A stretch of 64,000 bases of DNA from Desulfobacterales bacterium (GTDB lineage Bacteria; Desulfobacterota; Desulfobacteria; Desulfobacterales; SURF-7), in NCBI GenBank assembly GCA_028277765.1, contig JANQFQ010000051.1, forward strand, positions 115,849-179,848. Direction: 5' to 3'. Shown here one piece after another: positions 16,599 to 28,305 of the stretch. The translations under genes were made by a program, and so were the position numbers. Below the pieces are notes generated by a model. The model worked only from the letters and a program-made list of their open reading frames with translations. It was not told the origin of the DNA and did not search any database. Numbering within the stretch: the stretch's first letter is position 1; each line of letters opens with the position of its first letter.

Positions 16599-17021
16599 TT
16601 ACTCCTCAGATTGAACAGGCTTCCTCATCTTTTTAATTCTGCTCCGATGACGTTTATTCTCCAGAATCCTTTTTTTTGAAGCAGCCGAGCGTTTTGTCTT
16701 TTTCCGGACTTTGGGTTCTTTTGACGCCTCTTTGATTAGTTCAACCAAGCGGTCGATGGCATCTTCACGGTTTTGGGCCTGCGACCGAAACCGTTCCGCC
16801 CTGATGATAAGAATACCTTCATCTGTTATTCTTCTCCCTGCCAAAGAGACTAGCCGTTCACGGACATCATCAGGCAATGAAGGAGAGCCCTGAACGTCAA
16901 AGCGCAACTGTACGGCTGTGGAAACCTTATTTACGTTCTGCCCCCCTGGACCGGACGCACGCATAAAGTCCATTTTGATTTCACTCTCTTCAAGAGATAT
17001 ATCTGAGCTTATCCATATCAT
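16599..17021 (-). CDS. arfB: Alternative ribosome-rescue factor ArfB (peptidyl-tRNA hydrolase, GGQ)
   Basis: GPGGQNVNKVSTAVQLRF GGQ motif plus basic C-terminal tail; 140 aa. Confidence 0.8.
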   Translation of the reverse strand: MIWISSDISLEESEIKMDFMRASGPGGQNVNKVSTAVQLRFDVQGSPSLPDDVRERLVSLAGRRITDEGILIIRAERFRSQAQNREDAIDRLVELIKEASKEPKVRKKTKRSAASKKRILENKRHRSRIKKMRKPVQSEE

Positions 17022-17407
17022 TTTGTCACTTTATTAACTTAAATCATCCAATTCAACCTGTTATTTACCATGGGTATAAAAAAAACCTCTGACTTAAAAC
17101 CCTCATTTGTTGAAAAACAAATAGTCTGTTTCATGATAACCTCCTTCCGTCTTTGCAAATAATATCTGAACAAAGCGATACATCTACTTAAAGCACTTTT
17201 CTCTAAAGTAATGTTGGGTTTCGCCTCGTCACCATTCATATCACACAAACACATAAATCGGAGATTGGGTTACGTTTTTCAATCCAACAAAAAATTTCGG
17301 CTCTACCCAACCGACTACTCCCACCACGGCCTCCCGCAAGCACAAGAGGTTCTTCGCCTTTAGGACGCTGAATCCTGTCTTCATCAACTTTAGGCACTTC
17401 TTTTTTA

Positions 17408-17490
17408 TGGTGGCCGGAGCGGGAGTTGAACCCGCACGCTTTCGCACAGAGGTCTGAGCTCTGCGTGTCTGCCTGTTCCACCATCCGGCC
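17408..17490 (-). tRNA. tRNA-Leu (anticodon CAG), class II long variable arm
   Basis: Hand fold: acceptor GGCCGGA/TCCGGCC, loop cuCAGac, long variable hairpin, T-arm GCGGG-TTCAACT-CCCGC, CCA encoded. Confidence 0.8.
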
Positions 17491-17503
17491 TTATCTTTAT
17501 CAT

Positions 17504-17592
17504 CTGGTGCGTCGGGATGGACTTGAACCATCAGAGCTACTATAGCACCGGATTTACAGTCCGACCCGCTACCAGTTACGGTTTACCGACGC
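17504..17592 (-). tRNA. tRNA-Tyr (GTA), long variable arm
   Basis: Anticodon loop cuGUAaa, variable hairpin, T-loop TTCAAGT, CCA encoded. Confidence 0.75.
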
Positions 17593-17743
17593 ACAATACT
17601 TAAAAATCCAAAGAACGAAATCCGAACAAATCAGAAATTCAAATGTTCAAATGATCAAAACCCTCATACAAATTAAAAAACTTATAATTAAAAAAATAGC
17701 TGCTCTAAAATATTAAACCATAAAGTTTTGAATTTAATATTTT

Positions 17744-17796
17744 GGTCATTCGTATTTGTTTCGGATTTCGTGCTTCGGATTTCGAATTTTTTCTAT
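17744..17796. repeat. 48-bp repeat copy C (reverse orientation) of the AAATCCGAAGCACGAAATTCGAAATCCGAAAC...ATGACC family
   Basis: Reverse complement matches 19749-19795 and 36327-36372. Forms an inverted pair with the 19749 copy around a 16-tRNA block. Confidence 0.6.
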
Positions 17797-17863
17797 CATA
17801 ATCTAGTCCCCTTTCTAAGATAACTAAAGTTGAATATCCTGAACCATTATGTAAGCTGACGAT

Positions 17864-17937
17864 GGTGGCCCCTGTGAGAATCGAACTCACTTCATGAGAA
17901 TGAAAGTCTCATATCTTAACCAGTAGACGAAGGGGCC
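17864..17937 (-). tRNA. tRNA-Glu (TTC)
   Basis: Acceptor GGCCCCT, conserved CCTTCGTCTA, loop cuUUCau, CCA encoded. Confidence 0.75.
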
Positions 17938-18046
17938 ATACCAGTATTACTTAATTTAATCTCATATGTGCCGAAGATACATAAGCTAATAAGGACTTAA
18001 AATTGTCAGCATACCACAACTTTAGGCACTTAAGGCACTGTTTTTA

Positions 18047-18124
18047 TGGTAGGGGAGCCGGGATTCGAACCCGGAAATTACACTGGGCTTAAACCAGCAG
18101 CATGTGCCGTTCTGCTACTCCCCC
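18047..18124 (-). tRNA. Atypical tRNA, Leu-type anticodon TAA but class-I-like (7-nt variable loop, G13.A22 mismatch)
   Basis: Canonical T-arm CCGGG-TTCGAAT-CCCGG and acceptor. Best anticodon fold gives loop uuUAAgc. No long variable arm. Confidence 0.5.
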
Positions 18125-18135
18125 ATGCTTTTACC

Positions 18136-18212
18136 TGGAGAGCCTGGTGGGACTCGAACCCACATAAAACGATGTTGCAAACCGTCCCCTAACCAATTCG
18201 GGTCACAGGCTC
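18136..18212 (-). tRNA. tRNA-Cys (GCA)
   Basis: Loop uuGCAac, acceptor GAGCCUG/CAGGCUC, CCA encoded. Confidence 0.7.
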
Positions 18213-18291
18213 TGGTGCGGGCACCCGGAGTCGAACCGGGAAAACACATCGGGTTTGAGCCGACGGCATATGCCTATTCTGCCATGCCCGC
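18213..18291 (-). tRNA. Atypical tRNA, anticodon CAA (Leu-type) with short variable loop and 3-bp D-stem
   Basis: Acceptor GCGGGCA/UGCCCGC, loop cuCAAac, T-arm CCCGG-TTCGACT-CCGGG. Resembles the 18047 copy. Confidence 0.5.
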
Positions 18292-18292
18292 A

Positions 18293-18371
18293 TGGTGCCG
18301 GTGGTGGGAGTCGAACCCACAGATTTCACGGGATCTTAACCCGCAGCATATTCCAGTTCTGCTACACCGGC
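18293..18371 (-). tRNA. Atypical tRNA paralogous to 18047..18124 (anticodon loop uuaagau; AAG or shifted)
   Basis: Acceptor GCCGGUG/CACCGGC, D-arm GCAG-aacuggaauau-GCUGC, T-arm GUGGG-TTCGACT-CCCAC. Anticodon assignment uncertain. Confidence 0.45.
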
Positions 18372-18380
18372 TCTTTTTTA

Positions 18381-18457
18381 TGGCGCCCTGTACGGGATTT
18401 GAACCCGTGATACCAGATCGACAATCTAGCGTGATCGCCTGACTTCACTAACAGGGC
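18381..18457 (-). tRNA. tRNA-Asp (GTC)
   Basis: Loop uuGUCga, acceptor GCCCUGU/ACAGGGC, CCA encoded. Confidence 0.75.
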
Positions 18458-18467
18458 ATATTTCTCA

Positions 18468-18543
18468 TGGCAGGGGCGGAAGGATTCGAACCTTCAATTT
18501 ACGGCGTCAAAGGCCGCTGTGTTGCCAGTTTCACCACACCCCT
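18468..18543 (-). tRNA. tRNA-Gln (TTG)
   Basis: Loop cuUUGac, T-arm GAAGG-TTCGAAT-CCTTC, CCA encoded. Confidence 0.7.
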
Positions 18544-18656
18544 TTTTAAAAGCAGTTATAAGTTACAAGTGCCTTAAGTTAATGTATCGCTTCGCTCTGT
18601 CATCTTTAAACATACAAATTGTTAGAATTCATTCACTTAAGGCACTGCCTTTTACC

Positions 18657-18731
18657 TGGAGCGAGTAACCGGAATCGAACCGGTGTTTCAAGCTTGGAAG
18701 GCTTGCACTCTACCTGTTGAGTTATACTCGC
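18657..18731 (-). tRNA. tRNA-Gly (TCC)
   Basis: Loop cuUCCaa, acceptor GCGAGUA/UACUCGC. Confidence 0.75.
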
Positions 18732-18732
18732 T

Positions 18733-18806
18733 TGGAGCGAATGGCGGGAATTGAACCCGCGTTTCAACCATGGCAAGGTTGTGTTCTCCCCCTGAACTAC
18801 ATTCGC
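18733..18806 (-). tRNA. tRNA-Gly (GCC)
   Basis: Loop uuGCCau, acceptor GCGAAUG/CAUUCGC. Confidence 0.75.
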
Positions 18807-18807
18807 A

Positions 18808-18884
18808 TGGTGGAACGGATTGGAATTGAACCAATGACGCTTAGGGCTTCAACCTAACGCTCTACCAGCTTGAGCTACCGTTCC
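18808..18884 (-). tRNA. tRNA-Phe (GAA)
   Basis: Loop uuGAAgc, canonical D-arm AGCUCAAGCUGGUAGAGC. Confidence 0.8.
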
Positions 18885-18920
18885 ACAATCTTATATTTTT
18901 ACCATTGGCATAAGTTTCGT

Positions 18921-18955
18921 TTGAATAGTAAACTACACTATTCAACTCAGCTTTA
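18921..18955. promoter_or_regulatory. Palindrome TTGAATAGT-N7-ACTATTCAA followed by CTCAGCTTTAT, copy 1 of 2 (abuts the tRNA-Val 3' end)
   Basis: 9-bp perfect inverted repeat. The same ~35-bp sequence recurs at 33384-33419 directly in front of the rtcR start codon. Confidence 0.5.
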
Positions 18956-19032
18956 TGGTAGGACGAGCGGGATTCGAACCCGCATCCTTCTGCTTGTAAG
19001 GCAGATGCTCATCGCAATTGAGCTATCGTCCT
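18956..19032 (-). tRNA. tRNA-Val (TAC)
   Basis: Loop cuUACaa, T-arm GCGGG-TTCGAAT-CCCGC, CCA encoded. Confidence 0.75.
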
Positions 19033-19075
19033 GTGTTTTACTTTTATCTCCTTCATCATTGTATTACTCTAAAAA

Positions 19076-19181
19076 ATGGCCTGCCATACGTAGCTCGTTG
19101 CTATTTTGCCCTTAGCCCTCCTTCGCTAAAGCTATGGAGGGCACCATCCTTCTTCATCGCTCTGCTCTGAGCGAAGGATGG
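19076..19181. repeat. tRNA-array structured repeat (TASR) copy a: three-hairpin ~105-bp element abutting the tRNA 3' CCA
   Basis: Consensus ATGGCCAGCCAT...GCCCTCC-gtcgctaaagctat-GGAGGGC...CCATCCTTC-n-GAAGGATGG. Six copies at 19076, 20751, 20961, 21420, 21581 and 21822. Confidence 0.65.
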
Positions 19182-19258
19182 TGGAGGCACCGGTAGGATT
19201 TGAACCCACAACCAACTGCTTACAAGGCAGCTGCTCTTGTCCGTTGAGCTATGGTGCC
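19182..19258 (-). tRNA. tRNA-Thr (TGT)
   Basis: Loop cuUGUaa; CCA encoded and followed by a second CCA belonging to the repeat. Confidence 0.7.
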
Positions 19259-19297
19259 TTTCTTCTTTTTTATCTTTTACCCATCCAATTTTTCTTT

Positions 19298-19369
19298 TGG
19301 CACACCGGTAAGGAATCGAACCCTAGCCTACTGGTTTGGAGCCAGCCTGGTCACCATGACCTCCGGTGC
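19298..19369 (-). tRNA. tRNA-Trp-like (CCA) with aberrant D-arm (3-nt D-loop)
   Basis: Loop cuCCAaa, acceptor GCACCGG/CCGGUGU with G.U pairs, T-arm UAGGG-TTCGATT-CCUUA. D-arm collapses to GGUCA-ugg-UGACC. Confidence 0.5.
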
Positions 19370-19475
19370 GCATTTCATTACTTCTTTCCTGATGTTGTGC
19401 CTATAAAATGGCAGCGCTGAAAGCGCACCACAACTTAAGGCACTTGTAACTTATAACTTAAGCCACTTTATTATC

Positions 19476-19550
19476 TGGTCGGAGAGGAGGGACTTGAACC
19501 CCCAACTACGTGGCCCCAAACCACGCCGTCTCCCAATTGACTCACTCTCC
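19476..19550 (-). tRNA. tRNA-Pro (TGG)
   Basis: Starts CGGAGAG, loop uuUGGgg, CCA encoded. Confidence 0.7.
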
Positions 19551-19589
19551 GATTTTTCTATGAACATAAAATATGCTCCTGTTTATACA

Positions 19590-19667
19590 TGGGGTGTCGG
19601 AGGGGATTCGAACCCCCAACTACCTGAGCCACAATCAGGCGCTCTCCCCGTTGAGTCTACCGACACC
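19590..19667 (-). tRNA. tRNA-His (GTG) with genomically encoded G-1
   Basis: Loop uuGUGgc; extra 5' G opposite discriminator C; CCA encoded. Confidence 0.8.
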
Positions 19668-19748
19668 ATAAAAATGACAATACGCTTTCTTTTTTAGTTT
19701 CTAAGAAGTCACTCCTTTGCGTTAAAATATCTTGCTACCATTCTTGTT

Positions 19749-19795
19749 TAAAATCCGAAGCACGAAATTCGAAATCCGAAACAATATCAAATGAC
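19749..19795. repeat. 48-bp repeat copy A (forward) AAATCCGAAGCACGAAATTCGAAATCCGAAACAATATCAAATGACC
   Basis: Near-identical to 36327-36372 and reverse-complementary to 17744-17796. Confidence 0.6.
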
Positions 19796-19962
19796 CGAAA
19801 TACAAATTTCCGAAACACAAAAACATTTTGTTTTATAAAATCCAATGTTTTGAAAGTTTTAAAATTCGATATTCGGATTTAAAATTATCGTCATTAACTG
19901 TTCCCATAAATTACCTGCTAAATACCTTTCCTTATAAACGAGACTTTTTACAGTTTTGGTTT

Positions 19963-20038
19963 TGGCTGTGAGGGTCGGATTCGAACCGACGATTTCCTGA
20001 TTAACAGTCAGGCTCCTTGCCAGCTAGGATACCTCACA
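19963..20038 (-). tRNA. tRNA-Asn (GTT)
   Basis: Loop cuGUUaa, D-arm UCCU-agcuggca-AGGA, CCA encoded. Confidence 0.7.
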
Positions 20039-20122
20039 GCATGTTATCCTTTACAGCATTGCCCCAGCCCGCTGCCGCGATGTGTTCATCGCGGCAGCTT
20101 GATACTTTGAGCAATATACGGC

Positions 20123-20629
20123 TTAATAGATGCCTGCTTTTACAAGCAGATCATAAACGCCGATACTGTCGAGATGCTTCTTAATGAACTCCATAACTGT
20201 CGGCTGATAAGGCACAAAGTTTCTCTTATTAAAAAACATCTTTGCTTCCCTTAGGGTCCTGTCACCTTTTTTGTTATTGCAATCCACGCAGGAAGTTACA
20301 GTGTTTTCAAAAGTATTCTTACCTCCTCGTGACTGCGGAAAAACATGATCAATGTTCAGATTTTTTTTGGTTCCGCAGTAAACACATTTGAATACATCCC
20401 GAACCATCACGTTTTTTTTGGACCATGCCACAGCCTTTCGATAAATCTGTCTGACCAGATAAATCAGACGGAGAATCAACGGCACAACAATCTCTTCTGT
20501 TGCGGTTCTTACAATCATTTCAGAATACTTCTCCACGGTCACCTTTCCCTTGGCAACCAGCTTTAAAGCCCGTCGCACGGAAATGCTGTTAATGTAAGAA
20601 TAGTCCTGGTTTAAAAGTATTACTCTCAT
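20123..20629 (-). CDS. HNH endonuclease embedded in the tRNA array
   Basis: CVYCGTKKNLNIDHVFPQSRGG...N..VTSCVDCNNKKG HNH/zinc-finger motif; 168 aa. Confidence 0.75.
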   Translation of the reverse strand: MRVILLNQDYSYINSISVRRALKLVAKGKVTVEKYSEMIVRTATEEIVVPLILRLIYLVRQIYRKAVAWSKKNVMVRDVFKCVYCGTKKNLNIDHVFPQSRGGKNTFENTVTSCVDCNNKKGDRTLREAKMFFNKRNFVPYQPTVMEFIKKHLDSIGVYDLLVKAGIY

Positions 20630-20642
20630 GATCCACCGCCTT

Positions 20643-20717
20643 TGGCGCGCCTGGCAGGAATCGAACCCGCATATCAGAGCTTAGAAGGCTCCTGCTATTC
20701 CGTTTAGCTACAGGCGC
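20643..20717 (-). tRNA. tRNA-Arg (TCT)
   Basis: Loop cuUCUaa, acceptor GCGCCUG/CAGGCGC, CCA encoded. Confidence 0.75.
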
Positions 20718-20750
20718 TTGCCCATTATAACCTGCTTCTCCTTTCATTCT

Positions 20751-20855
20751 TAATGGTTTGCCCTCCGTAGCTCGATGTCTTTGATCCTTTTGCCCTCCGC
20801 CGCTAAAGCTATGGAGGGCACCATCCTTCTTCATCGCTCTGCTCTGAGCGAAGGA
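20751..20855. repeat. TASR repeat copy b
   Basis: Near-identical to copy a (..gccctccgccgctaaagctatggagggcaccatccttcttcatcgctctgctctgagcgaaggatgg). Confidence 0.65.
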
Positions 20856-20931
20856 TGGTGGAGGCGACAGGAATCGAACCCGCACGATACTGGATGCAAA
20901 CCAGCTGCTCTCCCTATTGAGCTACGCCCCC
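20856..20931 (-). tRNA. tRNA-Ala (TGC)
   Basis: Loop uuUGCau, and G3.U70 Ala identity pair present in acceptor GGGGGCG/CGCCUCC. Confidence 0.75.
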
Positions 20932-20960
20932 ATTTTCATTTCACTTAATCCTATCAATTT

Positions 20961-21037
20961 TAATGGCCTGCCATCCGTAGCTCGTTGCTATTGAGCCCTT
21001 AGCCCTCCTTCTTCGTCGCTTTACTCCGAGCGAAGGA
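20961..21037. repeat. TASR repeat copy c (middle hairpin deleted)
   Basis: atggcctgccatccgtagctcgttgc...ccctccttcttcgtcgctttactccgagcgaaggatgg. Confidence 0.6.
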
Positions 21038-21115
21038 TGGTGAGTGTGGAGGGACTCGAACCCTCAACTTACAGATTAAAAGCCTGTTACGCTGATCCAG
21101 TTGCGTCACACACTC
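21038..21115 (-). tRNA. tRNA-Lys (TTT)
   Basis: Loop cuUUUaa, acceptor GAGUGUG/CACACUC, CCA encoded. Confidence 0.7.
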
Positions 21116-21148
21116 ACATGTTAAACATCCTTTCCTCTATTTGTTTTC

Positions 21149-21224
21149 TGGTAGCGGCGGCCGGATTTGAACCGGCGCTGCACTGGATATGAACCAGTTG
21201 CTCTGCCTATTGAGCTACGCCGCA
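21149..21224 (-). tRNA. tRNA-Met/Ile2 type (CAT) with U1.U72 terminal mismatch
   Basis: Loop uuCAUau, T-arm GCCGG-TTCAAAT-CCGGC. The 1-72 mismatch is initiator-like but the anticodon stem lacks the three G-C pairs. Confidence 0.6.
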
Positions 21225-21231
21225 ACAAAAT

Positions 21232-21306
21232 TGGTAGCGATACCTGGAATCGAACCAGGGTTGCTCGATTATCGGTCGAGTGTTCTGCCTGCTGAACTAT
21301 ATCGCC
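21232..21306 (-). tRNA. tRNA-Ile (GAT), unusual C33
   Basis: Loop ccGAUaa, acceptor GGCGAUA/UAUCGCU, CCA encoded. Confidence 0.65.
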
Positions 21307-21319
21307 CCGATTTATATTC

Positions 21320-21398
21320 TGGCACCCCCGGGAAGATTCGAACTCCCGCAAACCCGGCTTCGAAGGCCGGCGCTCTGGATCCGCTGAGCTACGGGGGC
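21320..21398 (-). tRNA. tRNA-Arg (TCG)
   Basis: Loop cuUCGaa, acceptor GCCCCCG/CGGGGGU, CCA encoded. Confidence 0.6.
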
Positions 21399-21419
21399 AT
21401 ATGTCATCAAAACTTTCTT

Positions 21420-21493
21420 TAATTTCTTTGCCCTCCGTTGCTAAAGCTATGGAGGGCACCATCCTTCTCTGTCGCGCTGCTCCGAGCGAAGGA
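21420..21493. repeat. TASR repeat copy d (5' part missing)
   Basis: ..gccctccgttgctaaagctatggagggcaccatccttctctgtcgcgctgctccgagcgaaggatgg. Confidence 0.6.
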
Positions 21494-21569
21494 TGGTGGA
21501 CCCGGAAGGCATCGAACCTCCATAATACCGGTTATGAGCCGGCTGCTCTGCCGATTAAGCTACGGGTCC
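21494..21569 (-). tRNA. tRNA-Met (CAT), elongator-type
   Basis: Loop cuCAUaa, acceptor GGACCCG/CGGGUCC fully paired, CCA encoded. Confidence 0.7.
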
Positions 21570-21580
21570 AATTGCTTCTC

Positions 21581-21690
21581 ACGCCATATGGCCAGCCATC
21601 CGTAGCTCGTTGCCATTGAGCCCTTAGCCCTCCGCCGTTAAAGCTATGGAGGGCACCATCCTTCTCCGTCGTATTGCTCCGAGCGAAGGA
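21581..21690. repeat. TASR repeat copy e
   Basis: atggccagccatccgtagctcgttgccattgagcccttagccctccgccgttaaagctatggagggcaccatccttctccgtcgtattgctccgagcgaaggatgg. Confidence 0.65.
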
Positions 21691-21773
21691 TGGTGAGAGG
21701 GGGATTCGAACCCCCAAGGCTGTTACGCCCCACAGTTTAGCAGTCTGCTGCCATACCGTTCGGCCATCTCACC
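21691..21773 (-). tRNA. tRNA-Ser (GCT), class II, CCA not encoded
   Basis: Acceptor GGUGAGA/UCUCACC, loop cuGCUaa, long variable arm, T-arm GGGGG-TTCGAAT-CCCCC. Confidence 0.65.
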
Positions 21774-21821
21774 ATGTTTTCAATTTCGGTCTATGTATTA
21801 CCGTTTGCATTACCTCCTTTT

Positions 21822-21926
21822 TTATGGCCAGCCATCCGTAGCTCGGTGCATTTGATCCTTTTGCCCTCCGTCGCTAAAGCTATGGACGGCGCCATCCTTC
21901 TTCGTCGACTTACTCCGAGCGAAGGA
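21822..21926. repeat. TASR repeat copy f
   Basis: ttatggccagccatccgtagctcggtgc...gccctccgtcgctaaagctatggacggcgccatccttcttcgtcgacttactccgagcgaaggatgg. Confidence 0.65.
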
Positions 21927-22019
21927 TGGCGGAGGGACAGAGACTCGAACTCTGACGCGCCTTTTCAGGCGTTACTGGTTTTCAAGACCAGGCCCCGCCC
22001 CGCTGGGGTCAACCCCTCC
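21927..22019 (-). tRNA. tRNA-Ser (TGA), class II, 93 nt with irregular D-arm
   Basis: Anticodon arm CUGGU-cuUGAaa-ACCAG and T-arm CAGAG-TTCGAGT-CUCUG closely match enterobacterial tRNA-Ser(UGA). Long variable hairpin. TGA anticodon, not TCA, so not tRNA-Sec. Confidence 0.65.
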
Positions 22020-22230
22020 GAATGTCTATCCCGAATTTCGGGCGCAATTCACCTGTGAAAGTTTTTAAACATTTTTGTAAAAACTTTCTGTTTCGAACAG
22101 TACTATTGGCGTCTGACCCTGAATAAAAGCCCGGATTTTTCTGTAGCATTCAAGCTGTTTAAAAATCCGGTGATCGGTCAATTAACGGGATTTTCCGTTA
22201 TTTAGCGCATTCTATTTTCCTGTTCATATA

Positions 22231-22310
22231 ATCTTCTTCAAAAAAAAACCCTTTCAGTATGCCTTGGGCAACCGAAAGGGTTTATAAAAAGCATACTGAT
22301 CGTAGTAATC
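22231..22310. ncRNA. Candidate structured RNA motif, copy 1 (pseudoknot-capable: CCCTTTC..AGTATGC..GAAAGGG..GCATACT plus CTGA..TCAG hairpin)
   Basis: Interleaved complementarity, conserved in a second copy at 22551-22640 with a compensatory T>C / A>G change in the second helix. No ORF. Confidence 0.4.
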
Positions 22311-22550
22311 AGGTCATATGTTCCTCCGTATCTATAATTGCACTGGAAAAATTTAAATTGGCACAGAGCAATGAGGACATACTCCTGCGTTTAGTATTAC
22401 TGCCCGGGTAATACCATAGGTCGCTCTTGGGTATATATTGTTTTAATTGCTGCATTTTTTCCTTTACCTTGTTTGTAATCGAAACTGTTTTTTCAATTAA
22501 ATCCCCATTGGGCAGGTTTGGAACCCGCCCCTACATTAATCTAAATATTT

Positions 22551-22640
22551 GTTCAACCAATTAAAAAGCCCCTTTCAGCATGCTGCCGAAAGGGGCTGTA
22601 AAATTCATGCTGAAATTTAGTATCAGTTCATGGGCCCCTC
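22551..22640. ncRNA. Candidate structured RNA motif, copy 2
   Basis: GCCCCTTTCAGCATGCTG..CCGAAAGGGGCTGTAAAATTCATGCTGAAATTTAGTATCAG aligns with copy 1 and keeps all three pairings. Confidence 0.4.
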
Positions 22641-22894
22641 CCGGCGTGATATTCTGACATATGCCAGATGAATACCGTTATAAAACGGATTCAAGAGGGT
22701 GGCTTCGGATAGGCTAAAATCCAAAAGCCTTTTAATTTGTTTTAAACATAGTAACCAAATCATTTTTAAATTCCTTAGTAATTTTTAACCTAATTATACA
22801 CTCTCTTTCGCGCGAAGTCAACAGCCGATTTTTATCATTCTTGATTTAAAATCTCCTGAGAAGCCTATAAAACCTGTATTTCTTTTACAAATAA

Positions 22895-23413
22895 TCATAA
22901 TGAAATTTTTAGGCCAAACTTTTCTTTTATTGTCAGCAACGCTTCTGCATTCCCTTTTGCATCATCTACAGGATAATGCGTATGTTTGGTTTTCCTTAGA
23001 TGTTTAAAATTCTTAAACATATCTTTTACAATACCTTTATATAAAGATCCTAAGTTCGTTGAACTAAATCCAAAGGGATTCTTTCCTGTAAAATGATGAA
23101 AATACCAGTTAATAAATTGCCAATCAAAACCATTGTTATCAGAGATAAACATTGGCTGGCTTTTAGAGTGCGTTTTAATCCAGCTAGCAAAATTCATCAT
23201 GACCTCTTTTGGTTCATCAAACGCCAGTACTTCCTCCCGGCTAAAGCCACTCACTGCCAGTGCTTCAGGAATCCAGTTTTCTGAAATCGGCCGCATTTGC
23301 CCGTAAAAAGTTTTTTCAAGGCCCGGTTTTACGATAACCGCCCCAAAGCTGATCATCGAATAATCGTCAGGTATGGGACCATCAGATTCTATATCTACCA
23401 TTATATAACTCAT
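22895..23413 (-). CDS. DEDDh-family 3'-5' exonuclease (DnaQ/RNase T-like), single domain
   Basis: Exo I MVDIESDG, Exo II FISDNNGFDW, Exo III HxxxxD as HTHYPVDDA; 172 aa. Confidence 0.75.
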   Translation of the reverse strand: MSYIMVDIESDGPIPDDYSMISFGAVIVKPGLEKTFYGQMRPISENWIPEALAVSGFSREEVLAFDEPKEVMMNFASWIKTHSKSQPMFISDNNGFDWQFINWYFHHFTGKNPFGFSSTNLGSLYKGIVKDMFKNFKHLRKTKHTHYPVDDAKGNAEALLTIKEKFGLKISL

Positions 23414-23427
23414 TTATAACCTCCAGA

Positions 23428-23511
23428 GGAGATGGTGGGCACAGCCCACCCTACAAATCAACCGATCTATAGCTTTAACAAAACGTAGGGCGGGCTGTGC
23501 CCACCATCTCC
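23428..23511. repeat. Long perfect palindrome R1, copy 1 (27-bp arms GGAGATGGTGGGCACAGCCCACCCTAC, ~30-nt loop)
   Basis: Intercistronic between the exonuclease and HEAT genes. Second copy at 28213-28293. Confidence 0.7.
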
Positions 23512-23512
23512 T

Positions 23513-25165
23513 TTAAACCTTTTCCAGGTTAAATCTTATGCTTTTCACAATCCAGTCATCAATATATTTCCCAAATTTCAACAATGCATTTTCTATTCGC
23601 TTTTTCTGGTCCTGAGTCGGTTTTGTAAAGCTTCTATTAAACCCTGGCGGCCATTTTTCCAAATACATTACGGCTCTTTCTTTTACTATTGCATCAGCTG
23701 ATACAGCACCTTCAATCAAATAAGAAACACTGTCCCATTTTGAAAGATGCCTGATCACAAAAAGAATATTAAGCTTACTGTACTGTTTGTCAGTATTCTT
23801 AAATGCTCTCCAAAGCTCATCTGCATCATATATGTATTTTAACGTACTTAAAATCATTGCTGCTTCCCGTGAAATACCCGGGGTGTCTTCAACGATTTTT
23901 CGGGAAAAAAGCTCCGCATATTCTTTGGGGCTTAATTTGCCCACAGCACGAATCGCGGCTTTTCTAATTTTCGCAAGTCGATGTGTAACAGCACCAACAA
24001 TTAAATCCGCATCATCACTTTTGCCTGTTTCACCTAAACCGCAAATAGCCCCCTGCAGTTTTTCTTTTTTTTCCTGTTTAATGAATTTGCGATAAATTTC
24101 AGCAAAATCTATTTCTTTCTTTTTGGCCAGATAAAATCTGGCAAACTCCCTGATCGATTTATGAGAATCGAGCAGGGAGTCATACAGTTTATCTTCTGCC
24201 TGATCAGGAAACCTTTCAATTATGACCGATAATGCCTCTCTGCGCACAGGCATAAAGCTGTTTGAGAGCATTTTTTTAAGGCACTTTGAAATATAAATTT
24301 CATCATAAAGCGCTCTAATTTTTCGAGCACATTTTATCCTGATAACACAATCATGATCTGCCAGCCCAATGTCCAGGGCTTCATTTTCTATACCTGTATT
24401 AACATTAAGAACCAATTGAAAACAGCTCCTCCTTGCTTTCAGGTCGATTAAAAACAAGCCGTTTTTCAAAGCATCATATGAATGCTCACTGGTTAATAAA
24501 GCGGTTATTTTTTCAACCGTCTCTTTATGATCATGTCGCCTGCAGTCTAAAAGACTGTTGATAATAGCCATGTTTGACACAAAATGTTCTATATAATCCT
24601 CGTCAATTCGGCTCTTAATGCTCCTTAAAGCTATTTTATGAATTTCCCTCACCCAGTCATTTAACCTGATGAGAATAAACGGCAATTCCTTTCCAGATTT
24701 TATTTTTCTAAGTTTCTTTAGTGCTGATTCACGTATATATCCATTACTGTGAAATGTTGTTAATGCAAGAACGGCAAAAGATTCATCGTTTTTCCCTTTA
24801 AAATGCCCCACATCTGCAGGGACCAAATTCCATTGCCCATAACTGCTCATCGTGTAATACGGTGATCTTTCACGCACTTGCAAATCAAGCCAACCCAGCT
24901 CAGACACTGGAATCATTTTTAAAAGTGTTTCAAGGACACTTGATGCAGCTGTCGCAACATCCAGATGTTTTGAATATGCAAAAGGCAAAATATCCGGGAT
25001 TACCGCCGGTTCCATGCGAGAGCCGATTTGGATGATATGGTCGGCAATCCTGCTTGAATCTTCAAAAAGTTTATTAAGCTGTCCCCCAGAATCATATAAT
25101 TCATTTATCAAGCTCCTGGTCACTTCAGAAACTTTGCGTGAAAATGTATGGGTACTCTGTTTCAT
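23513..25165 (-). CDS. HEAT/armadillo-repeat protein
   Basis: Repeated amphipathic helix pairs (..VRREALSVIIE.., ..AKIRKAAIRAVGKL..) over 550 aa. All-alpha by composition. Confidence 0.55.
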   Translation of the reverse strand: MKQSTHTFSRKVSEVTRSLINELYDSGGQLNKLFEDSSRIADHIIQIGSRMEPAVIPDILPFAYSKHLDVATAASSVLETLLKMIPVSELGWLDLQVRERSPYYTMSSYGQWNLVPADVGHFKGKNDESFAVLALTTFHSNGYIRESALKKLRKIKSGKELPFILIRLNDWVREIHKIALRSIKSRIDEDYIEHFVSNMAIINSLLDCRRHDHKETVEKITALLTSEHSYDALKNGLFLIDLKARRSCFQLVLNVNTGIENEALDIGLADHDCVIRIKCARKIRALYDEIYISKCLKKMLSNSFMPVRREALSVIIERFPDQAEDKLYDSLLDSHKSIREFARFYLAKKKEIDFAEIYRKFIKQEKKEKLQGAICGLGETGKSDDADLIVGAVTHRLAKIRKAAIRAVGKLSPKEYAELFSRKIVEDTPGISREAAMILSTLKYIYDADELWRAFKNTDKQYSKLNILFVIRHLSKWDSVSYLIEGAVSADAIVKERAVMYLEKWPPGFNRSFTKPTQDQKKRIENALLKFGKYIDDWIVKSIRFNLEKV

Positions 25166-25179
25166 TTTTTTAATTTCGC

Positions 25180-25250
25180 ATAAGTAGGTTAGGTTGAGCC
25201 GGTTTGCCCATGTTGGGTTAAAAACCGAAACCCAACCTACAAAAATTTAG
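25180..25250. repeat. R2 hairpin element, copy 1 (GTAGGTTG..GTTGGGTT-loop-AACCCAACCTAC)
   Basis: Second copy at 28362-28428; both intercistronic in the minus-strand operon. Confidence 0.55.
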
Positions 25251-25282
25251 CGTTCAATCCTTTGCAATCCCATAGACCACAG

Positions 25283-27145
25283 TTAACAATGCTTAATCAA
25301 ATCAATAATCGTGGTTTTATCAAGCATCTCTGGTGACAAGTCAATGTGATCACCGTCAGGTTTTTCAGCAACCACGGTTGCCCCTGCTATACTCAACATT
25401 TCTCTAAAATCTAGAGAATTCACCATACTGCCAACCAAATATTTTCTTGCATACTTTGATTGCTCGTTCTTTGCAGATGTAATGGAATTACCAATGCTGA
25501 CGTTTGCAAAGTACACCCGGTTCTCTCCATCAATATTTACGATCAATCCTAAGATGTTCTGCTTTTTAGTAATATTTATATTAGCACTCGCAATAAGATT
25601 GTTCACATCGATCATATAATTTTTTTTAAACTTATTTGGTTTTTCATGTGCAGCCATAATCTTGCACTCGACTTCATCACCTTTTTGGAAATTATAGTAA
25701 TTCACCATTAATATCCTTGCTTCCTGGTATCCCTTTTTGATGTAAAAAAGCTCAGATGCTCCTCGCGGTGCAGGCGCGTCCGTAATATCCCCGGAGAACA
25801 GAACACTTCGGTCATCTGACCGATAAGCCTCATCCCATCCTATCTTGCCGGATTCACCAATAACAGATAAGTCCAAATCTACCTGCTTATTGGTATTTGT
25901 CCAATGAATACCCACAATCAAATCTTCCGGCACTGAGATATAACTGCCTGTTGGGAGATTTCCGGTAAACTGCTTTTCCGTTGCTGGTAAAGCATAATAA
26001 ACGTTTGATGGAATATAAAACGTCTTTTGATTAACATTCTTCTGGATATCACCGACTATTGAAGTAACAACTATATCCAGCGCTTCCCGGGTCGTTTCAT
26101 TAAGGCATTCATGCCACTCAAATTCTGTTGCCCAGCCGCGGCCGTTTCGAATTTTGTAAACAATTGATCCTTCAGGTTGAAGACGATGCTTGAGGGCATA
26201 TGCCAGGCGAATTTTCCGAAAGATACTTGCTTTTTCAATCCTTTCTCCTAATTCATCCAAATTTAATGTTCCGTATTTTATTTGAGACGTTATGCTGTTC
26301 AAATAATCTTCCGGTAATGGAACGTGTAATTTGTCTGCTTTTTTCCGTAATTGATTAAAAAATGTCTTATTTTGCGAAATAGACTTCATGGCTAAAAATA
26401 ATGGTTTAAACCGAAAGAAAATAGAAGCCAGATCGTCTGGCGCATCTTTAATCAACATATCCAGGAATTTTCCATTTGCTTCCTTTATCTTCTCGATCAA
26501 ATAATCACTTTTTATAATTAATGATTCGTCTGTCAGCTTGCTAATCAAATGACGCAAAAACTCAACCGGATCAGAAGGCACAAGGCCATAAAGGTCATAA
26601 AGCAATGCCTTCAGCTCTCGATTGCCTATCTCATGGGCAAAATCACTGTCATAGTTATTGGCTTTTACAATGGTCATAATATCGTCCAATGTTTCTTGCG
26701 CAAGAGCGATTCCTGACCCTAAGTTTATAATTCTGTCAAGGATCTCCTGTGCATCCATCGCCTTAATAATAATTAACGGGACGCTGTCTTTAATAACAGG
26801 CAGTTCCAAAACCTCACTTGGAATATAAACCGCATCTTCCCGATAAATACCAAGCTCCTTGTATCCATACGTGGTTATGTAATGAATGATTTGCTGAATC
26901 ACTAAAGATTCCATTGAAGCATTCTGGACGACTTCCCAGGACTTATGAAAGGCAGCATTTGCTTTTTCACCGGAAATACCTACAACACTTTCAATAACAT
27001 CCAGCAAATCATTATTCGGCCATATGGCTTCATCAAGCAGATAACCGTTTTTAATTGTCCGCTCAAGAACAGACTGAGGTATATTTTTTTTGTTTTTGTT
27101 CTTAACTTGAATAGCATTAAACAATCTCAATGTTGCAGTTTTCAT
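25283..27145 (-). CDS. Large hypothetical protein (620 aa; N-terminal alpha-helical ~350 aa, C-terminal beta-rich domain)
   Basis: Long ORF with AAGGAGA 9 nt upstream of the ATG. No motif I can name; no MIDAS/vWA motif and no TROVE hallmark seen by eye. Confidence 0.6.
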   Translation of the reverse strand: MKTATLRLFNAIQVKNKNKKNIPQSVLERTIKNGYLLDEAIWPNNDLLDVIESVVGISGEKANAAFHKSWEVVQNASMESLVIQQIIHYITTYGYKELGIYREDAVYIPSEVLELPVIKDSVPLIIIKAMDAQEILDRIINLGSGIALAQETLDDIMTIVKANNYDSDFAHEIGNRELKALLYDLYGLVPSDPVEFLRHLISKLTDESLIIKSDYLIEKIKEANGKFLDMLIKDAPDDLASIFFRFKPLFLAMKSISQNKTFFNQLRKKADKLHVPLPEDYLNSITSQIKYGTLNLDELGERIEKASIFRKIRLAYALKHRLQPEGSIVYKIRNGRGWATEFEWHECLNETTREALDIVVTSIVGDIQKNVNQKTFYIPSNVYYALPATEKQFTGNLPTGSYISVPEDLIVGIHWTNTNKQVDLDLSVIGESGKIGWDEAYRSDDRSVLFSGDITDAPAPRGASELFYIKKGYQEARILMVNYYNFQKGDEVECKIMAAHEKPNKFKKNYMIDVNNLIASANINITKKQNILGLIVNIDGENRVYFANVSIGNSITSAKNEQSKYARKYLVGSMVNSLDFREMLSIAGATVVAEKPDGDHIDLSPEMLDKTTIIDLIKHC

Positions 27146-27163
27146 CGTAATCTCCTTTTAAAT

Positions 27164-27217
27164 GGGGCGAGAGGTAATTTAACTTATCGAGTTTTTTTTA
27201 AGGAACCTCTTGTGCCC
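27164..27217 (-). ncRNA. Hairpin module C (GGGC-ACA-AGAGG-U .. A-CCUCU-C-GCCC with A-rich loop)
   Basis: Same architecture as modules at 27345 and 28306, with compensatory base changes (GGGAG/CUCCU versus AGAGG/CCUCU). Confidence 0.55.
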
Positions 27218-27227
27218 TTCAATATGT

Positions 27228-27340
27228 CGGGGAAGGCAGGAATCGAACCTGCGACCGCCGGGTCCAAGATTTCAGGAACCCCCTGTGCCATAAAGCGGAG
27301 AGTAAAAAATCCCGGTGCTCTACCGCTGAGCTACTTCCCC
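27228..27340 (-). ncRNA. tRNA-like RNA (Y-RNA / YrlA-like tRNA mimic): intact acceptor, D-arm and T-arm, anticodon loop replaced by a 48-nt insertion
   Basis: GGGGAAG-UA-GCUC-AGCGGUAGA-GCAC-C-CCGGG-[48 nt incl. GGCACAGGGGGUUCC]-CCCGG-CGGUC-GCAGG-UUCGAUU-CCUGC-CUUCCCC. No CCA encoded. Sits in the rtcB operon flanked by hairpin modules. Confidence 0.6.
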
Positions 27341-27344
27341 ATAT

Positions 27345-27390: not shown

Positions 27391-27424
27391 CAAATGTTTC
27401 ATCTTTTTACAAATTAATATATTA

Positions 27425-28293: not shown

Positions 28294-28305
28294 ACTTCCC
28301 AATAT

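Follow-up and report, generated by a model that had tools for sequence, protein, structure and literature searches.

The tRNA array and the six copies of the repeat

What is the hairpin-forming repeat of about 105 bases that occurs in six copies in this window (the whole 64,000-nt stretch of DNA that was analysed), each copy on the 3′ CCA end of a tRNA gene? The copies belong to an array of 27 tRNA genes, of which 26 encode the CCA and six carry the repeat, leaving 21 without it. All six copies lie on the minus strand, which is the tRNA-sense strand, and they fall within 2.9 kb, in one orientation and one transcription unit, with only about 20-55 nt from a copy to the next tRNA. In the list below, the copies are given in plus-strand numbering, from the conserved CCAT (element 3′ end) to the CCA (element 5′ end).

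17408..22019, minus strand: host array of 27 tRNA genes, of the L-array type, between rtc operon genes and arfB
20123..20629, minus strand: HNH endonuclease gene, 168 aa, inside the array; context to the repeat only
19076..19181, minus strand: copy c1, full length, after tRNA-Thr (19182-19258), 135.6 bits
20753..20858, minus strand: copy c2, full length, after tRNA-Ala (20856-20931), 135 bits
20963..21040, minus strand: copy c3, with a 28-nt internal deletion, after tRNA-Lys (21038-21115), 83.9 bits
about 21425..21496, minus strand: copy c4, 3′ third missing, after tRNA-Met (21494-21569), 95.2 bits
21588..21693, minus strand: copy c5, full length, after tRNA-Ser(gct) (21691-21773, Rfam boundaries), 135.9 bits
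21824..21929, minus strand: copy c6, full length, after tRNA-Ser(tga) (21927-22019), 130.3 bits

The 17-mer CCATCCTTCGCTCNGAG occurs exactly six times against 0.35 expected even at up to 3 mismatches, which excludes chance, and a covariance model made from the six sequences and searched without filters returned just these six matches in the 64 kb (84-136 bits), with no seventh copy (next match E>0.1). The two results confirm the claim of an earlier, sequence-only reading that six copies of about 105 bp adjoin tRNA CCA ends. The three motifs by which that reading had described the repeat are present overall, with exceptions: c1 and c3 have ATGGCCTGCCAT in place of ATGGCCAGCCAT, which is degenerate in c2 and missing from c4; c3 has no GCCCTCC-n14-GGAGGGC, and c6 has GCCGTCC in it; and the 3′ arm of hairpin 1 is GAAGGAGGG in c3. 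It had also rightly seen deletions in two copies: the 28-nt loss in c3 fuses hairpins 1 and 2 and leaves the 3′ third intact, and c4 keeps hairpins 1 and 2 and has AT-rich sequence in place of the distal arm and GGCCAT tail. The distal arm of c2, GGAGGGC, could form a helix with the 5′ arm of hairpin 2, and the CCA-U 3′ end (GGCCAU or ACCAU) is invariant in five copies, c4 being without a 3′ end. As a whole, the earlier observation is thus partly confirmed.

The array is embedded in an RtcR-type rtc RNA-repair operon that encodes RtcB, RtcA, RtcR, ArfB and an RNase T-like exonuclease. It has the defining features of an L-array (PMC8421152), namely a same-strand operon of 27 tRNAs, a linked HNH gene and flanking RtcB, RtcA, RtcR and ArfB genes, and it resembles L-arrays such as the Anabaena trn operon in its single orientation, its HNH gene and its rtcB and translation-rescue neighbours (PMC8421152). 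HNH genes of this type accompany long tRNA arrays on cyanobacterial and mycobacterial plasmids (PMC8421152), and homologues of the HNH gene found here lie on Nostoc, Acaryochloris and Mycobacterium plasmids. However, the Anabaena array has spacers of 3-10 nt and no repeat, whereas the window array lies inside an RtcR-type rtc operon. The repeat is absent as well from the array-less rtc operon of a relative; its distribution is patchy.

The junction with the tRNA 3′ end

In the copies after tRNA-Ala, tRNA-Lys, tRNA-Met and tRNA-Ser(tga), the repeat opens with a CCA that is C74-C75-A76 of the tRNA itself (in c2, for example, 20856-20858 is C74-A76 of tRNA-Ala), so that each of the four junctions is exact. 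The junction of c1 is shifted by +3 nt: after the CCA of tRNA-Thr (19182-19184) comes another CCA, with which hairpin 1 begins, and the sequence carried here, GCC|TCCACCA, is identical to the end of tRNA-Ala. The junction of c5 is shifted by -3 nt: with the Rfam boundaries, the CCA of the repeat is C71-C72-A73 of tRNA-Ser(gct), and this tRNA gene therefore encodes no CCA. The earlier claim that each copy ends exactly at the CCA accordingly stands for four copies and fails for tRNA-Thr (+3) and tRNA-Ser(gct) (-3). Likewise, the CCACCA junction that it gave for every copy is found in three (Thr, Ala and Met), the others having TCACCA (Lys and Ser(gct)) or CCGCCA (Ser(tga)), a restriction that we attribute to the +3 and -3 shifts. 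These registers, the extra 3 nt after tRNA-Thr and the loss from tRNA-Ser(gct) of a CCA that 26 of the 27 array tRNAs encode, point to recombination of DNA, and the ancestral junction is best explained as an alanine-type acceptor end, TCCACCA.

Architecture, pairing and covariation

The unit consists of one word of about 11 nt, CC(A/C)TCC-NTN-GC, repeated in alternating orientation. Its 5′ arm A begins with the CCA of the tRNA and forms hairpin 1 with a perfect local complement, A′; hairpin 2, which has an 18-nt core, lies between A′ and a distal arm C that is a near-copy of A′; and a short tail, CAGG-CCAT(CC), can fold back on arm C as hairpin 3. Between genomes, A and A′ covary at 0.117 against 0.077 in shuffles (0 of 500 reach it; slid controls at most 0.087), and A and C at 0.197 against 0.083 (again 0 of 500; slid controls at most 0.051). 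Arms A and C agree at 17 of 19 positions in the relatives described below, with covariation at the positions that vary.

Hairpin 1 pairs with the N73-CCA of the tRNA, and two of its pairs show compensatory changes among the window copies: pair 3-42, at the discriminator, is A-U in the other copies and G73 with a unique C in c6, while pair 17-29 is A..U or G..C; U.G variants occur as well. These two changes argue that pairing with the tRNA end has been under selection. Hairpin 2 has conserved purine-purine mismatches on the sense strand; the A:C helix has them on the antisense strand and carries pyrimidine-pyrimidine mismatches on the sense strand. This opposite placement is compatible with the formation of hairpins on both strands of the DNA, and counting G.U against A.C revealed no strand bias.

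The window copies are mosaic, since 5′ types (A..U or G..C at pair 17-29) and linkers (TAAGGGC or AAAAGGAT) occur in all four combinations. They are 78-92% identical to one another, against 57-80% for their host tRNAs, and therefore were not inherited by simple duplication of a tRNA plus its spacer. The copies have terminal inverted repeats, 5′ CCATCCTTCGCTCGGAG against the inverted 3′ CCATCCGTAGCTCG(G/T)TG, and CCAT(CC) stands as a direct repeat at both element ends; this sequence is also part of hairpin 3, and neither an unambiguous target-site duplication nor a filled-versus-empty pair of orthologous sites was found.

Hairpin 1 leads into hairpin 2, and a T run past the element end occurs in c1 only. 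The intrinsic terminator that had been offered as one candidate is not supported, there being no U tract and a terminator scan finding no site at any copy.

Relatives at tRNA and tmRNA genes and their GIY-YIG gene

A pattern scan that used the stems only detected about 18 distinct full-length relatives in GC-rich metagenome contigs, and 16 of the 18 sit behind the 3′ end of a tRNA or tmRNA gene or behind a 3′ fragment of one. They start on the sense strand at the CCA of tRNA-Ala(ggc), tRNA-Val(tac) or tmRNA and are preceded by (T)CCACCA, and they lie behind solitary tRNA or tmRNA genes of the chromosome, among ordinary neighbours and without an integrase. The tRNA association is genuine and general, extending to the tRNA-Ala, tRNA-Val and tmRNA genes of other bacteria, and in the DNA searched the repeat is not a generic, tRNA-independent REP. 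In Rfam 15, which includes RtT RNA, self-cleaving ribozymes and tRNA-like RNAs, the six copies had no match at gathering score or at E up to 10, nor had the relatives in 6 loci.

In nine relatives, an intact or nearly intact ORF of 81-84 aa for a minimal, Slx1-like GIY-YIG domain (PF01541, E about 1e-10) lies directly downstream, so that the 3′ end of the element runs straight into it. The ORF is decayed in L037, L033b and L027, displaced tmRNA or tRNA-Ala 3′ fragments stand ahead of the element in L035, L037 and L032, and the element is in tandem in L028 and L033. Hairpins of the hairpin 1 type occur also 3′ of the ORF, so that the GIY-YIG gene is bracketed by inverted repeats. Intact and decayed ORFs, displaced fragments, tandem copies and bracketing hairpins together make up the kind of life cycle that selfish cassettes go through. 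No nuclease partner gene was seen in the 64 kb of the window, where the GIY-YIG proteins gave tblastn matches at E>0.3 only.

The hairpin 2 core, CCRTAGCTTTAGCGAAGG, with covarying outer stems, further occurs in 38 IMG/VR contigs that range from phage-like to giant-virus MAGs, with no recurring neighbour gene around it in these contigs; we read this spread as the distribution of a horizontally moving module. The link with a GIY-YIG gene and the wide spread of the core were beyond what the sequence-only reading could see.

A proposed mobile element at CCA ends

Based on these findings, we propose, with a confidence that is evenly balanced, that the six repeats belong, as non-autonomous copies without an ORF (MITE- or REP-like), to a family of hairpin-built, mobile or recombinogenic DNA elements that targets CCA ends. 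The family looks previously undescribed, and it looks mobile and tRNA-end-targeting because the relatives lie behind tRNA or tmRNA genes, often just before a tiny GIY-YIG gene. The occupation of non-homologous sites, six different tRNAs in the window and tRNA-Ala(ggc), tRNA-Val(tac) and tmRNA elsewhere, favours this proposal.

What was observed is the family, its association with its targets, the link to a GIY-YIG gene in relatives, covarying arms, mosaic copies and shifted registers; from these we infer mobility, a nuclease role, and the strand or molecule in which the hairpins act. First, single-stranded or cruciform hairpins could be the substrate recognised by a structure-specific nuclease, which in this genome would be supplied in trans. 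New junctions may then arise where tRNA ends recombine through their CCA/CCA microhomology, after which copies inside the array could swap segments by gene conversion. Owing to its sense-strand position inside the tRNA transcription unit, the element would also be transcribed as a 3′ trailer, in which hairpin 1 would sequester N73-CCA; such sequestration would have to suit tRNA maturation and may be selected on that account. Against mobility stand the two compensatory changes in hairpin 1 and the failure to find a partner gene in the window or an unambiguous target-site duplication. A cluster of one orientation in one transcription unit would equally suit a selected RNA function, and to our knowledge GIY-YIG nucleases hydrolyse DNA and are not known as transposases.

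The candidates that the earlier reading had put forward are on the whole partly supported. Recombination sites gain from the mosaic copies, the two CCA-CCA register shifts and the cassette-like relatives, but lack the features of an integron attC; and a co-transcribed structured RNA or 3′-processing element would accord with the covarying helices and the predicted pairing of hairpin 1 with N73-CCA.

Alternative explanations

The foremost alternative, which we regard as possible though less probable, is a functional structured 3′-trailer RNA that is co-transcribed with the tRNA and whose spread to several tRNAs was selected and not selfish. Hairpin 1 of this RNA would stack directly on the acceptor stem and sequester N73-CCA, thereby shielding the 3′ end from exonucleases or toxins, fixing where processing occurs or keeping the tRNA inactive before processing, and in the relatives the RNA would double as a 5′ leader or stabiliser of the GIY-YIG mRNA. 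Consistent with it, the element is found without exception on the tRNA-sense strand, beginning at CCA, in the relatives as in the window; the predicted precursor keeps an intact cloverleaf, with hairpin 1 starting at A73 without a gap; the copies have folding z-scores of -2.3 to -4.7; pairs 3-42 and 17-29 are compensatory, with U.G variants; and hairpins 1 and 2 come out independently in RNAalifold, with an apical loop that is either UUUA or CUUG, both of one loop class. The setting is an operon for RNA repair (RtcB, RtcA, RtcR, ArfB and the RNase T-like exonuclease), and a fusion with TrmH has prompted the suggestion that prokaryotic Slx1-like GIY-YIG domains take part in RNA metabolism (PMC1564403). 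However, the +3 and -3 shifts, one of which removes an encoded CCA, are unlike a precise processing signal; 21 of the 27 array tRNAs and the Anabaena L-array do without the element; and the truncated c3 and c4 persist. In addition, loops are conserved like stems across phyla of very different GC content, the hairpin 2 core occurs in viruses of bacteria and of eukaryotes, without common host RNA factors, the A:C helix carries pyrimidine-pyrimidine mismatches on the sense strand, and no Rfam family matches.

It is unlikely that the tRNA precursor gives rise to the repeat as a stable small RNA, in the manner of E. coli rtT RNA. The position and logic are the same, a repeat that abuts or includes a tRNA 3′ end in a tRNA operon: rtT derives from tyrT operon repeats (178 bp) that start with the tRNA-Tyr 3′ end, and like the element, those repeats begin at or with a tRNA 3′ end and are co-transcribed. 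Processing of rtT out of the tyrT transcript has been described (bioRxiv 10.1101/2024.07.17.603846), and from the invariant CCA-U end of the element, processing could leave a CCA 3′ end. Yet the element has no sequence or Rfam similarity to rtT even at E up to 10, its 3′ third has no stable consensus fold, either in the folding of copies or in RNAalifold, c4 is without a 3′ end, and in relatives the 3′ end runs directly into an ORF, whereas the rtT repeats stand behind one tRNA type in one operon.

Integron-like (attC-type) or other site-specific recombination sites that assemble and shuffle tRNA cassettes are very doubtful: although units made of a gene and an imperfect palindrome 3′ of it, in one orientation throughout, and the mosaic copies would fit them, the copy alignments hold no R″/R′ core sites (RYYYAAC, GTTRRRY) at either end, Pfam scans brought up no IntI, transposase, integrase or other recombinase among about 50 window ORFs, only 6 of the 27 tRNAs carry the element, and the relatives stand behind single chromosomal genes without an integrase. 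Least likely of all, and already disfavoured given the relatives, is purely local tandem duplication of tRNA-plus-spacer units followed by tRNA divergence, with neither function nor mobility, for which the clustering of five copies within 1.2 kb and the 71-78% identity among tRNA-Ala and two tRNA-Met genes speak, but against which stand elements far more alike than their tRNAs and their presence behind unrelated tRNA and tmRNA genes in other phyla.

Relation to known mobile elements

As a putative mobile element, the repeat resembles the REP/REPIN-RAYT system in its short imperfect palindromes made from one word in alternating orientation, in the occurrence of both orphan copies and copies that bracket a small nuclease gene (the GIY-YIG ORF of relatives), in a GTAG-containing head, here CCGTAGC, and in conserved mismatches inside the hairpins. 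However, RAYT is a Y1 (HUH) transposase, whereas the partner here is a minimal Slx1-like GIY-YIG domain: the gene flanked by hairpins in relatives encodes GIY-YIG, with no Y1_Tnp match. Moreover, REPs are scattered over the whole genome in extragenic space, with tens to hundreds of copies, but within the 64 kb and the contigs this element is tied to tRNA and tmRNA CCA ends, and its unit is about 105-120 nt with three hairpins.

Free-standing homing endonucleases offer a second comparison, as T4 segB is reportedly a GIY-YIG gene of this kind in a tRNA cluster. Relatives likewise have a GIY-YIG gene beside or within tRNA genes, and displaced 3′ fragments of the target gene lie next to some copies. 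In contrast, the 81-aa protein of relatives is without a DNA-binding domain, the window copies are ORF-less while nine relatives have the ORF, and the conserved structured leader is without a counterpart in seg genes.

With MITEs and PATEs, which derive from IS200/IS605, the element shares its small size, lack of an ORF, terminal inverted repeats and subterminal hairpins with conserved irregularities. PATEs insert 3′ of a fixed tetra- or pentanucleotide without duplicating it and have their subterminal hairpins on one strand; insertion of the element in one orientation directly 3′ of a short fixed sequence would be comparable, as CCA precedes every window copy, and (T)CCACCA the relatives. The hairpin 2 core also looks similar to what we take to be the end hairpin of IS608 (CCCCTAGCTTTTAGCTATGGGG). 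It differs in being without a known cognate transposase (no TnpA was found, the window has no cognate autonomous element with a transposase, and the ORF of relatives is GIY-YIG); the CCAT(CC) direct repeat at its two ends, which may simply belong to hairpin 3, gives no clear target-site duplication. The purine-purine mismatches lie on opposite strands in hairpin 2 and in the A:C helix, and a third, internal arm copy (A′) covaries as well.

Six copies of a hairpin element follow tRNA genes

ARAGORN and Rfam place the 27 tRNA genes of the array at 17408–22019, every one on the − strand, and a conserved element lies directly 3′ of six of them on the same strand, namely Thr-tgt, Ala-tgc, Lys-ttt, the second Met-cat, Ser-gct and Ser-tga (copies c1 to c6 in this order; alignments A1 and A2). 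The 17-mer CCATCCTTCGCTCNGAG occurs exactly six times in the window, against 0.35 expected even with ≤3 mismatches, and the other two conserved blocks occur five times each against 0 expected. The covariance model R1, built from the six copies and run unfiltered over the whole window, scored them at 84–136 bits and returned no further copy with E<0.1. Therefore, the six-copy, tRNA-abutting repeat proposed by the sequence-only reading is borne out by the tRNA calls, the exact 17-mer counts and the model scores. Full length is retained by c1, c2, c5 and c6, at 103–106 nt each; the deletions claimed for two copies are confirmed, c3 lacking 28 nt, which fuses hairpins 1 and 2, and c4 lacking its 3′ third.

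Parts of the element, tRNA-sense strand
Arm A: CCATCCTTCGCTCGGAG, followed by the loop
Arm A′: GAAGGATGG, 3′ of the loop, forming hairpin 1 with A
Hairpin 2: GCCCTCC-ATAGCTTTAGCGNN-GGAGGGC, with an 18-nt core
Linker: two types, between hairpin 2 and arm C
Arm C: CGAGCTACGGATGG
Tail: C(A/T)GGCCAT, after arm C

Folding is far better in every copy than in shuffled sequence, whichever strand is taken (sense-strand z −2.3 to −4.7), strong folding of both strands being expected of palindromes. In the predicted precursor of tRNA-Ala plus element the cloverleaf is retained and hairpin 1 begins at A73 with zero unpaired bases, and N73-CCA would therefore be buried. Two pairs show two-sided changes within the window, the discriminator with column 42 (A-U in most copies, G-C in c6) and pair 17-29 (A-U in c1 and c2, G-C in the remaining copies), and two U·G variants occur as well. 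All four combinations of the two 5′ types with the two linker types are present; the copies are thus mosaic, an indication that they have exchanged segments.

The element meets the tRNA end in three registers

CCA is encoded by 26 of the 27 tRNA genes. At Ala, Lys, Met and Ser(tga), the tRNA's own C74-C75-A76 are the first three bases of the element. At Thr, a second CCA follows that of the tRNA (+3 shift), and the ten bases GCCTCCACCA match the tRNA-Ala 3′ end exactly, as though an end of the alanine type had been attached behind GGTGCC. At Ser(gct), the perfect acceptor stem GGTGAGA/TCTCACC puts the element's CCA at positions 71–73 (−3 shift), and the gene therefore encodes no CCA. Thus the CCACCA junction, once ascribed to every copy, holds for three copies only. 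The shifts of +3 (Thr) and −3 (Ser(gct)) would be the expected product of recombination in alternative registers of CCA-CCA microhomology. The tRNA-Ser(gct) gene (21688–21774, −; discriminator A73) is the sole one of the 27 without an encoded CCA, and its ends are placed 1–3 nt apart by ARAGORN and Rfam; annotation pipelines would gain from knowing that one of the six tRNAs, Ser-gct, has its encoded CCA lost to the element.

Relatives lie behind tRNA-Ala and tmRNA

No Rfam family is matched by the repeat, and exact patterns that include the loop (hairpin-1 5′ arm plus loop) gave no relevant match in IMG/VR (4 chance matches in coding DNA, tRNAs absent), GTDB genomes (4 chance matches in high-GC MAGs) or JGI metagenomes (zero matches). 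BLAST searches of phages and plasmids with the array, one copy, or a relative plus its ORF returned tRNA matches only or none. The stem-only pattern CCATCCTTC-N18-24-GAAGGATGGNGCC retrieved 30 JGI contigs, about 20 of them with full-length R1 matches at 31–87 bits and about 10 with unrelated hairpins, a census that leans to conserved copies because pattern scans require exact stems. The contigs with relatives are GC-rich (57–73%).

Among 18 distinct full-length relatives, tRNA-Ala(ggc) lies directly 5′ of the element in five and tmRNA in eight (cut by the contig end and recognised by sequence in three of these); only a 3′ fragment of tRNA-Ala or tmRNA precedes the element in three (L037, L032 and L035), and the upstream tRNA is absent in two (L033b and L028b). 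Variants that have hairpin 1 alone are found behind tRNA-Val(tac) and a further tRNA-Ala. In all relatives the sequence 5′ of the element is (T)CCACCA, an acceptor end of alanine type that tRNA-Ala and tmRNA have in common, and Rfam reports only tRNA and tmRNA in six of their loci. The neighbours in L027 and L028 are ordinary chromosomal genes. No account of the element turned up in literature searched for tRNA-linked repeats, for GIY-YIG genes beside tRNAs and for the core string.

Arms A, A′ and C co-vary between genomes, and C is a near-copy of A′ (GC-TAC-GGATGG in C, GC-GAA-GGATGG in A′).

Arms in two relatives
L044: A GCCCGGAAC; A′ GTTCCGGGC; C GTTCCGGGC
L045: A GCTCCGCG; A′ CGCGGGAGC; C CGCGGAGC

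In the fixed-register alignment A4, the covariation score was 0.117 for A:A′ against 0.077±0.012 in shuffled alignments and 0.197 for A:C against 0.083±0.013, values reached by 0 of 500 shuffles in either case, with slid controls at most 0.087 and 0.051, respectively; because relatedness inflates such scores, they are taken as support for pairing or an inverted-repeat constraint and not as proof of RNA. Counts of G·U against A·C are balanced (6 vs 5 in A:A′, 8 vs 5 in A:C) and thus uninformative for strand assignment. Hairpin 2 has a 3×3 internal loop, R-N-A/G-N-A, with purine-purine mismatches on the sense strand and an apex alternating between UUUA and CUUG. The A:C helix has invariant U·C and C·U mismatches on the sense strand, which read as G·A and A·G on the antisense strand, the same motif as in hairpin 2; therefore the module appears to be present once per strand.

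A minimal GIY-YIG nuclease gene accompanies fuller copies

In nine relatives, an ORF of 81–84 aa starting MFYAYILQS lies 2–50 nt downstream of the element on the same strand. It matches Pfam GIY-YIG (PF01541) with E of about 1e-10, and a protein of this kind has been deposited under the name "Excinuclease ABC subunit C [Verrucomicrobia bacterium]". The ORF is a stand-alone minimal GIY-YIG domain, the architecture described for a prokaryotic Slx1-like group (PMC1564403), to which it would belong judging from architecture. A hairpin-1-type hairpin also occurs 3′ of the ORF, and the gene is therefore bracketed by inverted repeats. Decay is seen in L037 and L033b, where the ORFs are degraded, and in L027, which has a frameshift. 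L035 appears to have undergone serial insertion: its tmRNA is followed by a divergent GIY-YIG gene, then by a 3′ fragment of tmRNA and the element, with a second GIY-YIG gene last. The window holds no GIY-YIG gene; a candidate pseudogene at 22365–22460 was not significant (E 0.35–0.45).

The hairpin-2 core recurs in viral DNA

The core CCRTAGCTTTAGCGAAGG was found in 38 IMG/VR contigs, with outer stems that vary yet remain complementary (tccg/cgga, attatatt/aatata, gccct/agggg and others). Several of these contigs are giant-virus MAGs, in which the core comes after another hairpin that has the GTA/GAA internal loop as well. Around the core in the 38 contigs no protein family recurs as neighbour, nor is this GIY-YIG subfamily encoded adjacent to it, and the core string has no match in the searchable literature. 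In giant-virus-type and related IMG/VR contigs (L064, L067, L073, L074, L076, L080, L086, L090 and L094), AT-rich elements consist of two tandem hairpins, GGAAAAC-GTA-GAC...GTC-GAA-GTTTTCC followed by attatatt-CCGTAGCTTTAGCGAAGG-aatata, with the GTA/GAA internal loop in both; they look like a MITE-like family with the hairpin-2 core of the bacterial element.

What the repeats may be

The evidence best supports a view of the six repeats as ORF-less members of a family of hairpin-built elements that spreads horizontally and lodges at CCA ends, and whose fuller copies would be partnered by the minimal GIY-YIG nuclease. The analysis shows the family itself, its association with tRNA and tmRNA ends, the linked ORF and its decay, the mosaic copies, the shifted registers and the covariation; actual mobility, the role of the nuclease and the acting strand are what we infer here. 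REP/REPIN-RAYT systems and MITE/PATE elements come closest to such a family. A bolder form, which we consider possible but rather doubtful, is a novel class of mobile element that targets the universal CCA ends of tRNA and tmRNA, has an 18-nt-core hairpin module common to bacteria, phages and giant viruses, and owes its mobilisation or maintenance to a minimal, structure-specific Slx1-like GIY-YIG nuclease; within that form, element and nuclease would parallel the REP-RAYT pair, with GIY-YIG in the place of RAYT.

As the main rival, the element would be a selected 3′-trailer RNA that caps N73-CCA. The orientation of the copies, the discriminator covariation and the RNA-repair setting all speak for this, but it is a poor explanation for copies that are truncated or shifted in register and for a core that is found in viruses both of bacteria and of eukaryotes. 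The two are compatible. In the bolder form, the element once transcribed may additionally cap the tRNA 3′ end, which, if true, would tie it functionally in this genome to an Rtc RNA-repair operon with its own complete tRNA set. Of two further candidates in the sequence-only reading, a recombination site survives in part, in that the mosaic copies indicate exchange but the attC model fails on the alignment reading, and a terminator failed its specific test, a terminator scan. Simple duplication does not fit copies that are 78–92% identical when their host tRNAs are 57–80% identical, and the end of an integrase-borne island does not fit L027 and L028, where no integrase is found near the element. 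A disguised tRNA or tRNA-like RNA (T-loop absent, ARAGORN and Rfam silent, TAGC words merely mimicking tRNA 5′ ends), a known ribozyme releasing the tRNA (no Rfam match), a sigma-54 or sigma-70 promoter at the element's 3′ end (matches inconsistent among copies) and a small peptide ORF, MVPSIALATEG (Shine-Dalgarno-like sequence abutting the ATG), were rejected.

If the mobile-element reading is true, integrase-borne islands would not be alone in targeting the 3′ ends of tRNA and tmRNA genes, since a tiny hairpin element would do so too. Stand-alone bacterial Slx1-like nucleases are a large family of obscure function, and an element whose sole associated gene is an 81-aa GIY-YIG domain would offer them a testable substrate. 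As a sequence common to the DNA of bacteria, phages and giant viruses, the 18-nt core would give a new marker of horizontal DNA traffic that is easy to search for. A helix that starts at the discriminator base and buries the CCA would raise the question of how such tRNA precursors mature, in a stress/repair operon whose other products include RtcB, RtcA, ArfB and an RNase T-like exonuclease.

The array lies in an rtc operon

The window is chromosomal (rib genes, nusB, glyA, fabF/G, gltX and hisD are present), and its best named relatives are Desulfobacterales-like.

Order of the rtc region
33291–35021, +: rtcR, facing the − strand operon
− strand operon, part 1: tRNA-like RNA, Band7 gene, RtcA, DUF4275, RtcB, zinc-finger (zf_Tbcl) protein
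− strand operon, part 2: second tRNA-like RNA (44-nt insert), 620-aa protein, HEAT-repeat protein
− strand operon, part 3: RNase T-like exonuclease, two terminators, tRNA array, ArfB

Within 16599–35021, an RNA-repair operon of the RtcR/sigma-54 type has the complete 27-tRNA L-array and four extra genes (zf_Tbcl, 620-aa, HEAT-repeat and RNase T-like exonuclease) inserted between its rtcB and arfB genes. This insert is missing in the relative L011, whose operon reads rtcR / tRNA-like RNA, Band7, RtcA, RtcB, two small ORFs, ArfB. Searches through flanking proteins did not recover this array in related genomes: it is absent from the relatives L010, L011 and L014, and the same-sample contigs with ArfB and the exonuclease (L009 and L013) break at the array edges. 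The HNH gene inside the array has homologues on Nostoc, Acaryochloris and Mycobacterium plasmids, with no tRNAs near those at L021 and L022. In this the array agrees with the published "L-array" type and its linkage to HNH and rtcB (PMC8421152). The Anabaena L-array has 3–10 nt spacers and lacks the repeat, so that L-arrays do not carry the repeat in general. Homologues of the HEAT-repeat protein (~36–38% identity) occur in L019 (8148–8741), beside a 6-tRNA mini-array without the repeat and Ro60 (TROVE) and RlaP genes, and in L015–L018, beside integrase and TIR-domain genes; a HEAT-repeat protein is encoded by the Anabaena delta plasmid as well. The RNase T/Rv2179c-like exonuclease (22895–23413, −; 172 aa) is 75–83% identical to proteins of Planctomycetes, Verrucomicrobia and Bacteroidetes, an unusually high conservation across phyla.

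Two tRNA-like RNAs accompany the operon. That at 27228–27340 (−), between the zf_Tbcl gene and the 620-aa ORF, scores 60.3 bits with the Rfam tRNA model and has all four arms, with a 44-nt insertion replacing the anticodon loop and no ARAGORN call; it may be either a YrlA-type, Y-RNA-like module or a tRNA that bears an intron and neighbours RtcB. The other, at 33013–33076 (−; 52.3 bits, model positions 5–66, anticodon loop CUUAUAA), sits in the interval from rtcR to the first gene of the operon and has a counterpart in the same place in L011 (2398–2462), and thus appears to be a conserved leader element of this rtc operon type.

Other repeats and signals occur in and around the array. The motif AACTTAAGGCACTT / AAGTGCCTTAAGTT has about six occurrences in the array and just past it, including a perfect 27-nt inverted pair 851 nt apart.

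Occurrences of the motif
17376–17399, 18008–18031 and 19422–19445, +
18554–18597 and 18627–18646, inverted

Clusters of the words TTCGGATTTCG / AAATCCGAA occupy the two long array gaps and the region upstream (17595–17800, 19747–19885 and ~22030–22200) and could be operator or promoter repeats, analogous to the direct repeats governing the Anabaena trn operon. Between the exonuclease gene and the array lie two strong terminator-like hairpins (22567–22597 and ~22240–22290, −), the first preceded by an 11/12 sigma-70-like promoter site (22821–22793, −), which suggests a short independent transcript and an array with its own promoter.

Upstream of a two-component system, three further genes may form a defence-like cluster.

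Genes of the putative cluster
7423–7848, +: second small HNH endonuclease ORF
5241–6683, −: caspase/CHAT-domain protein
8150–9541, +: vWA protein
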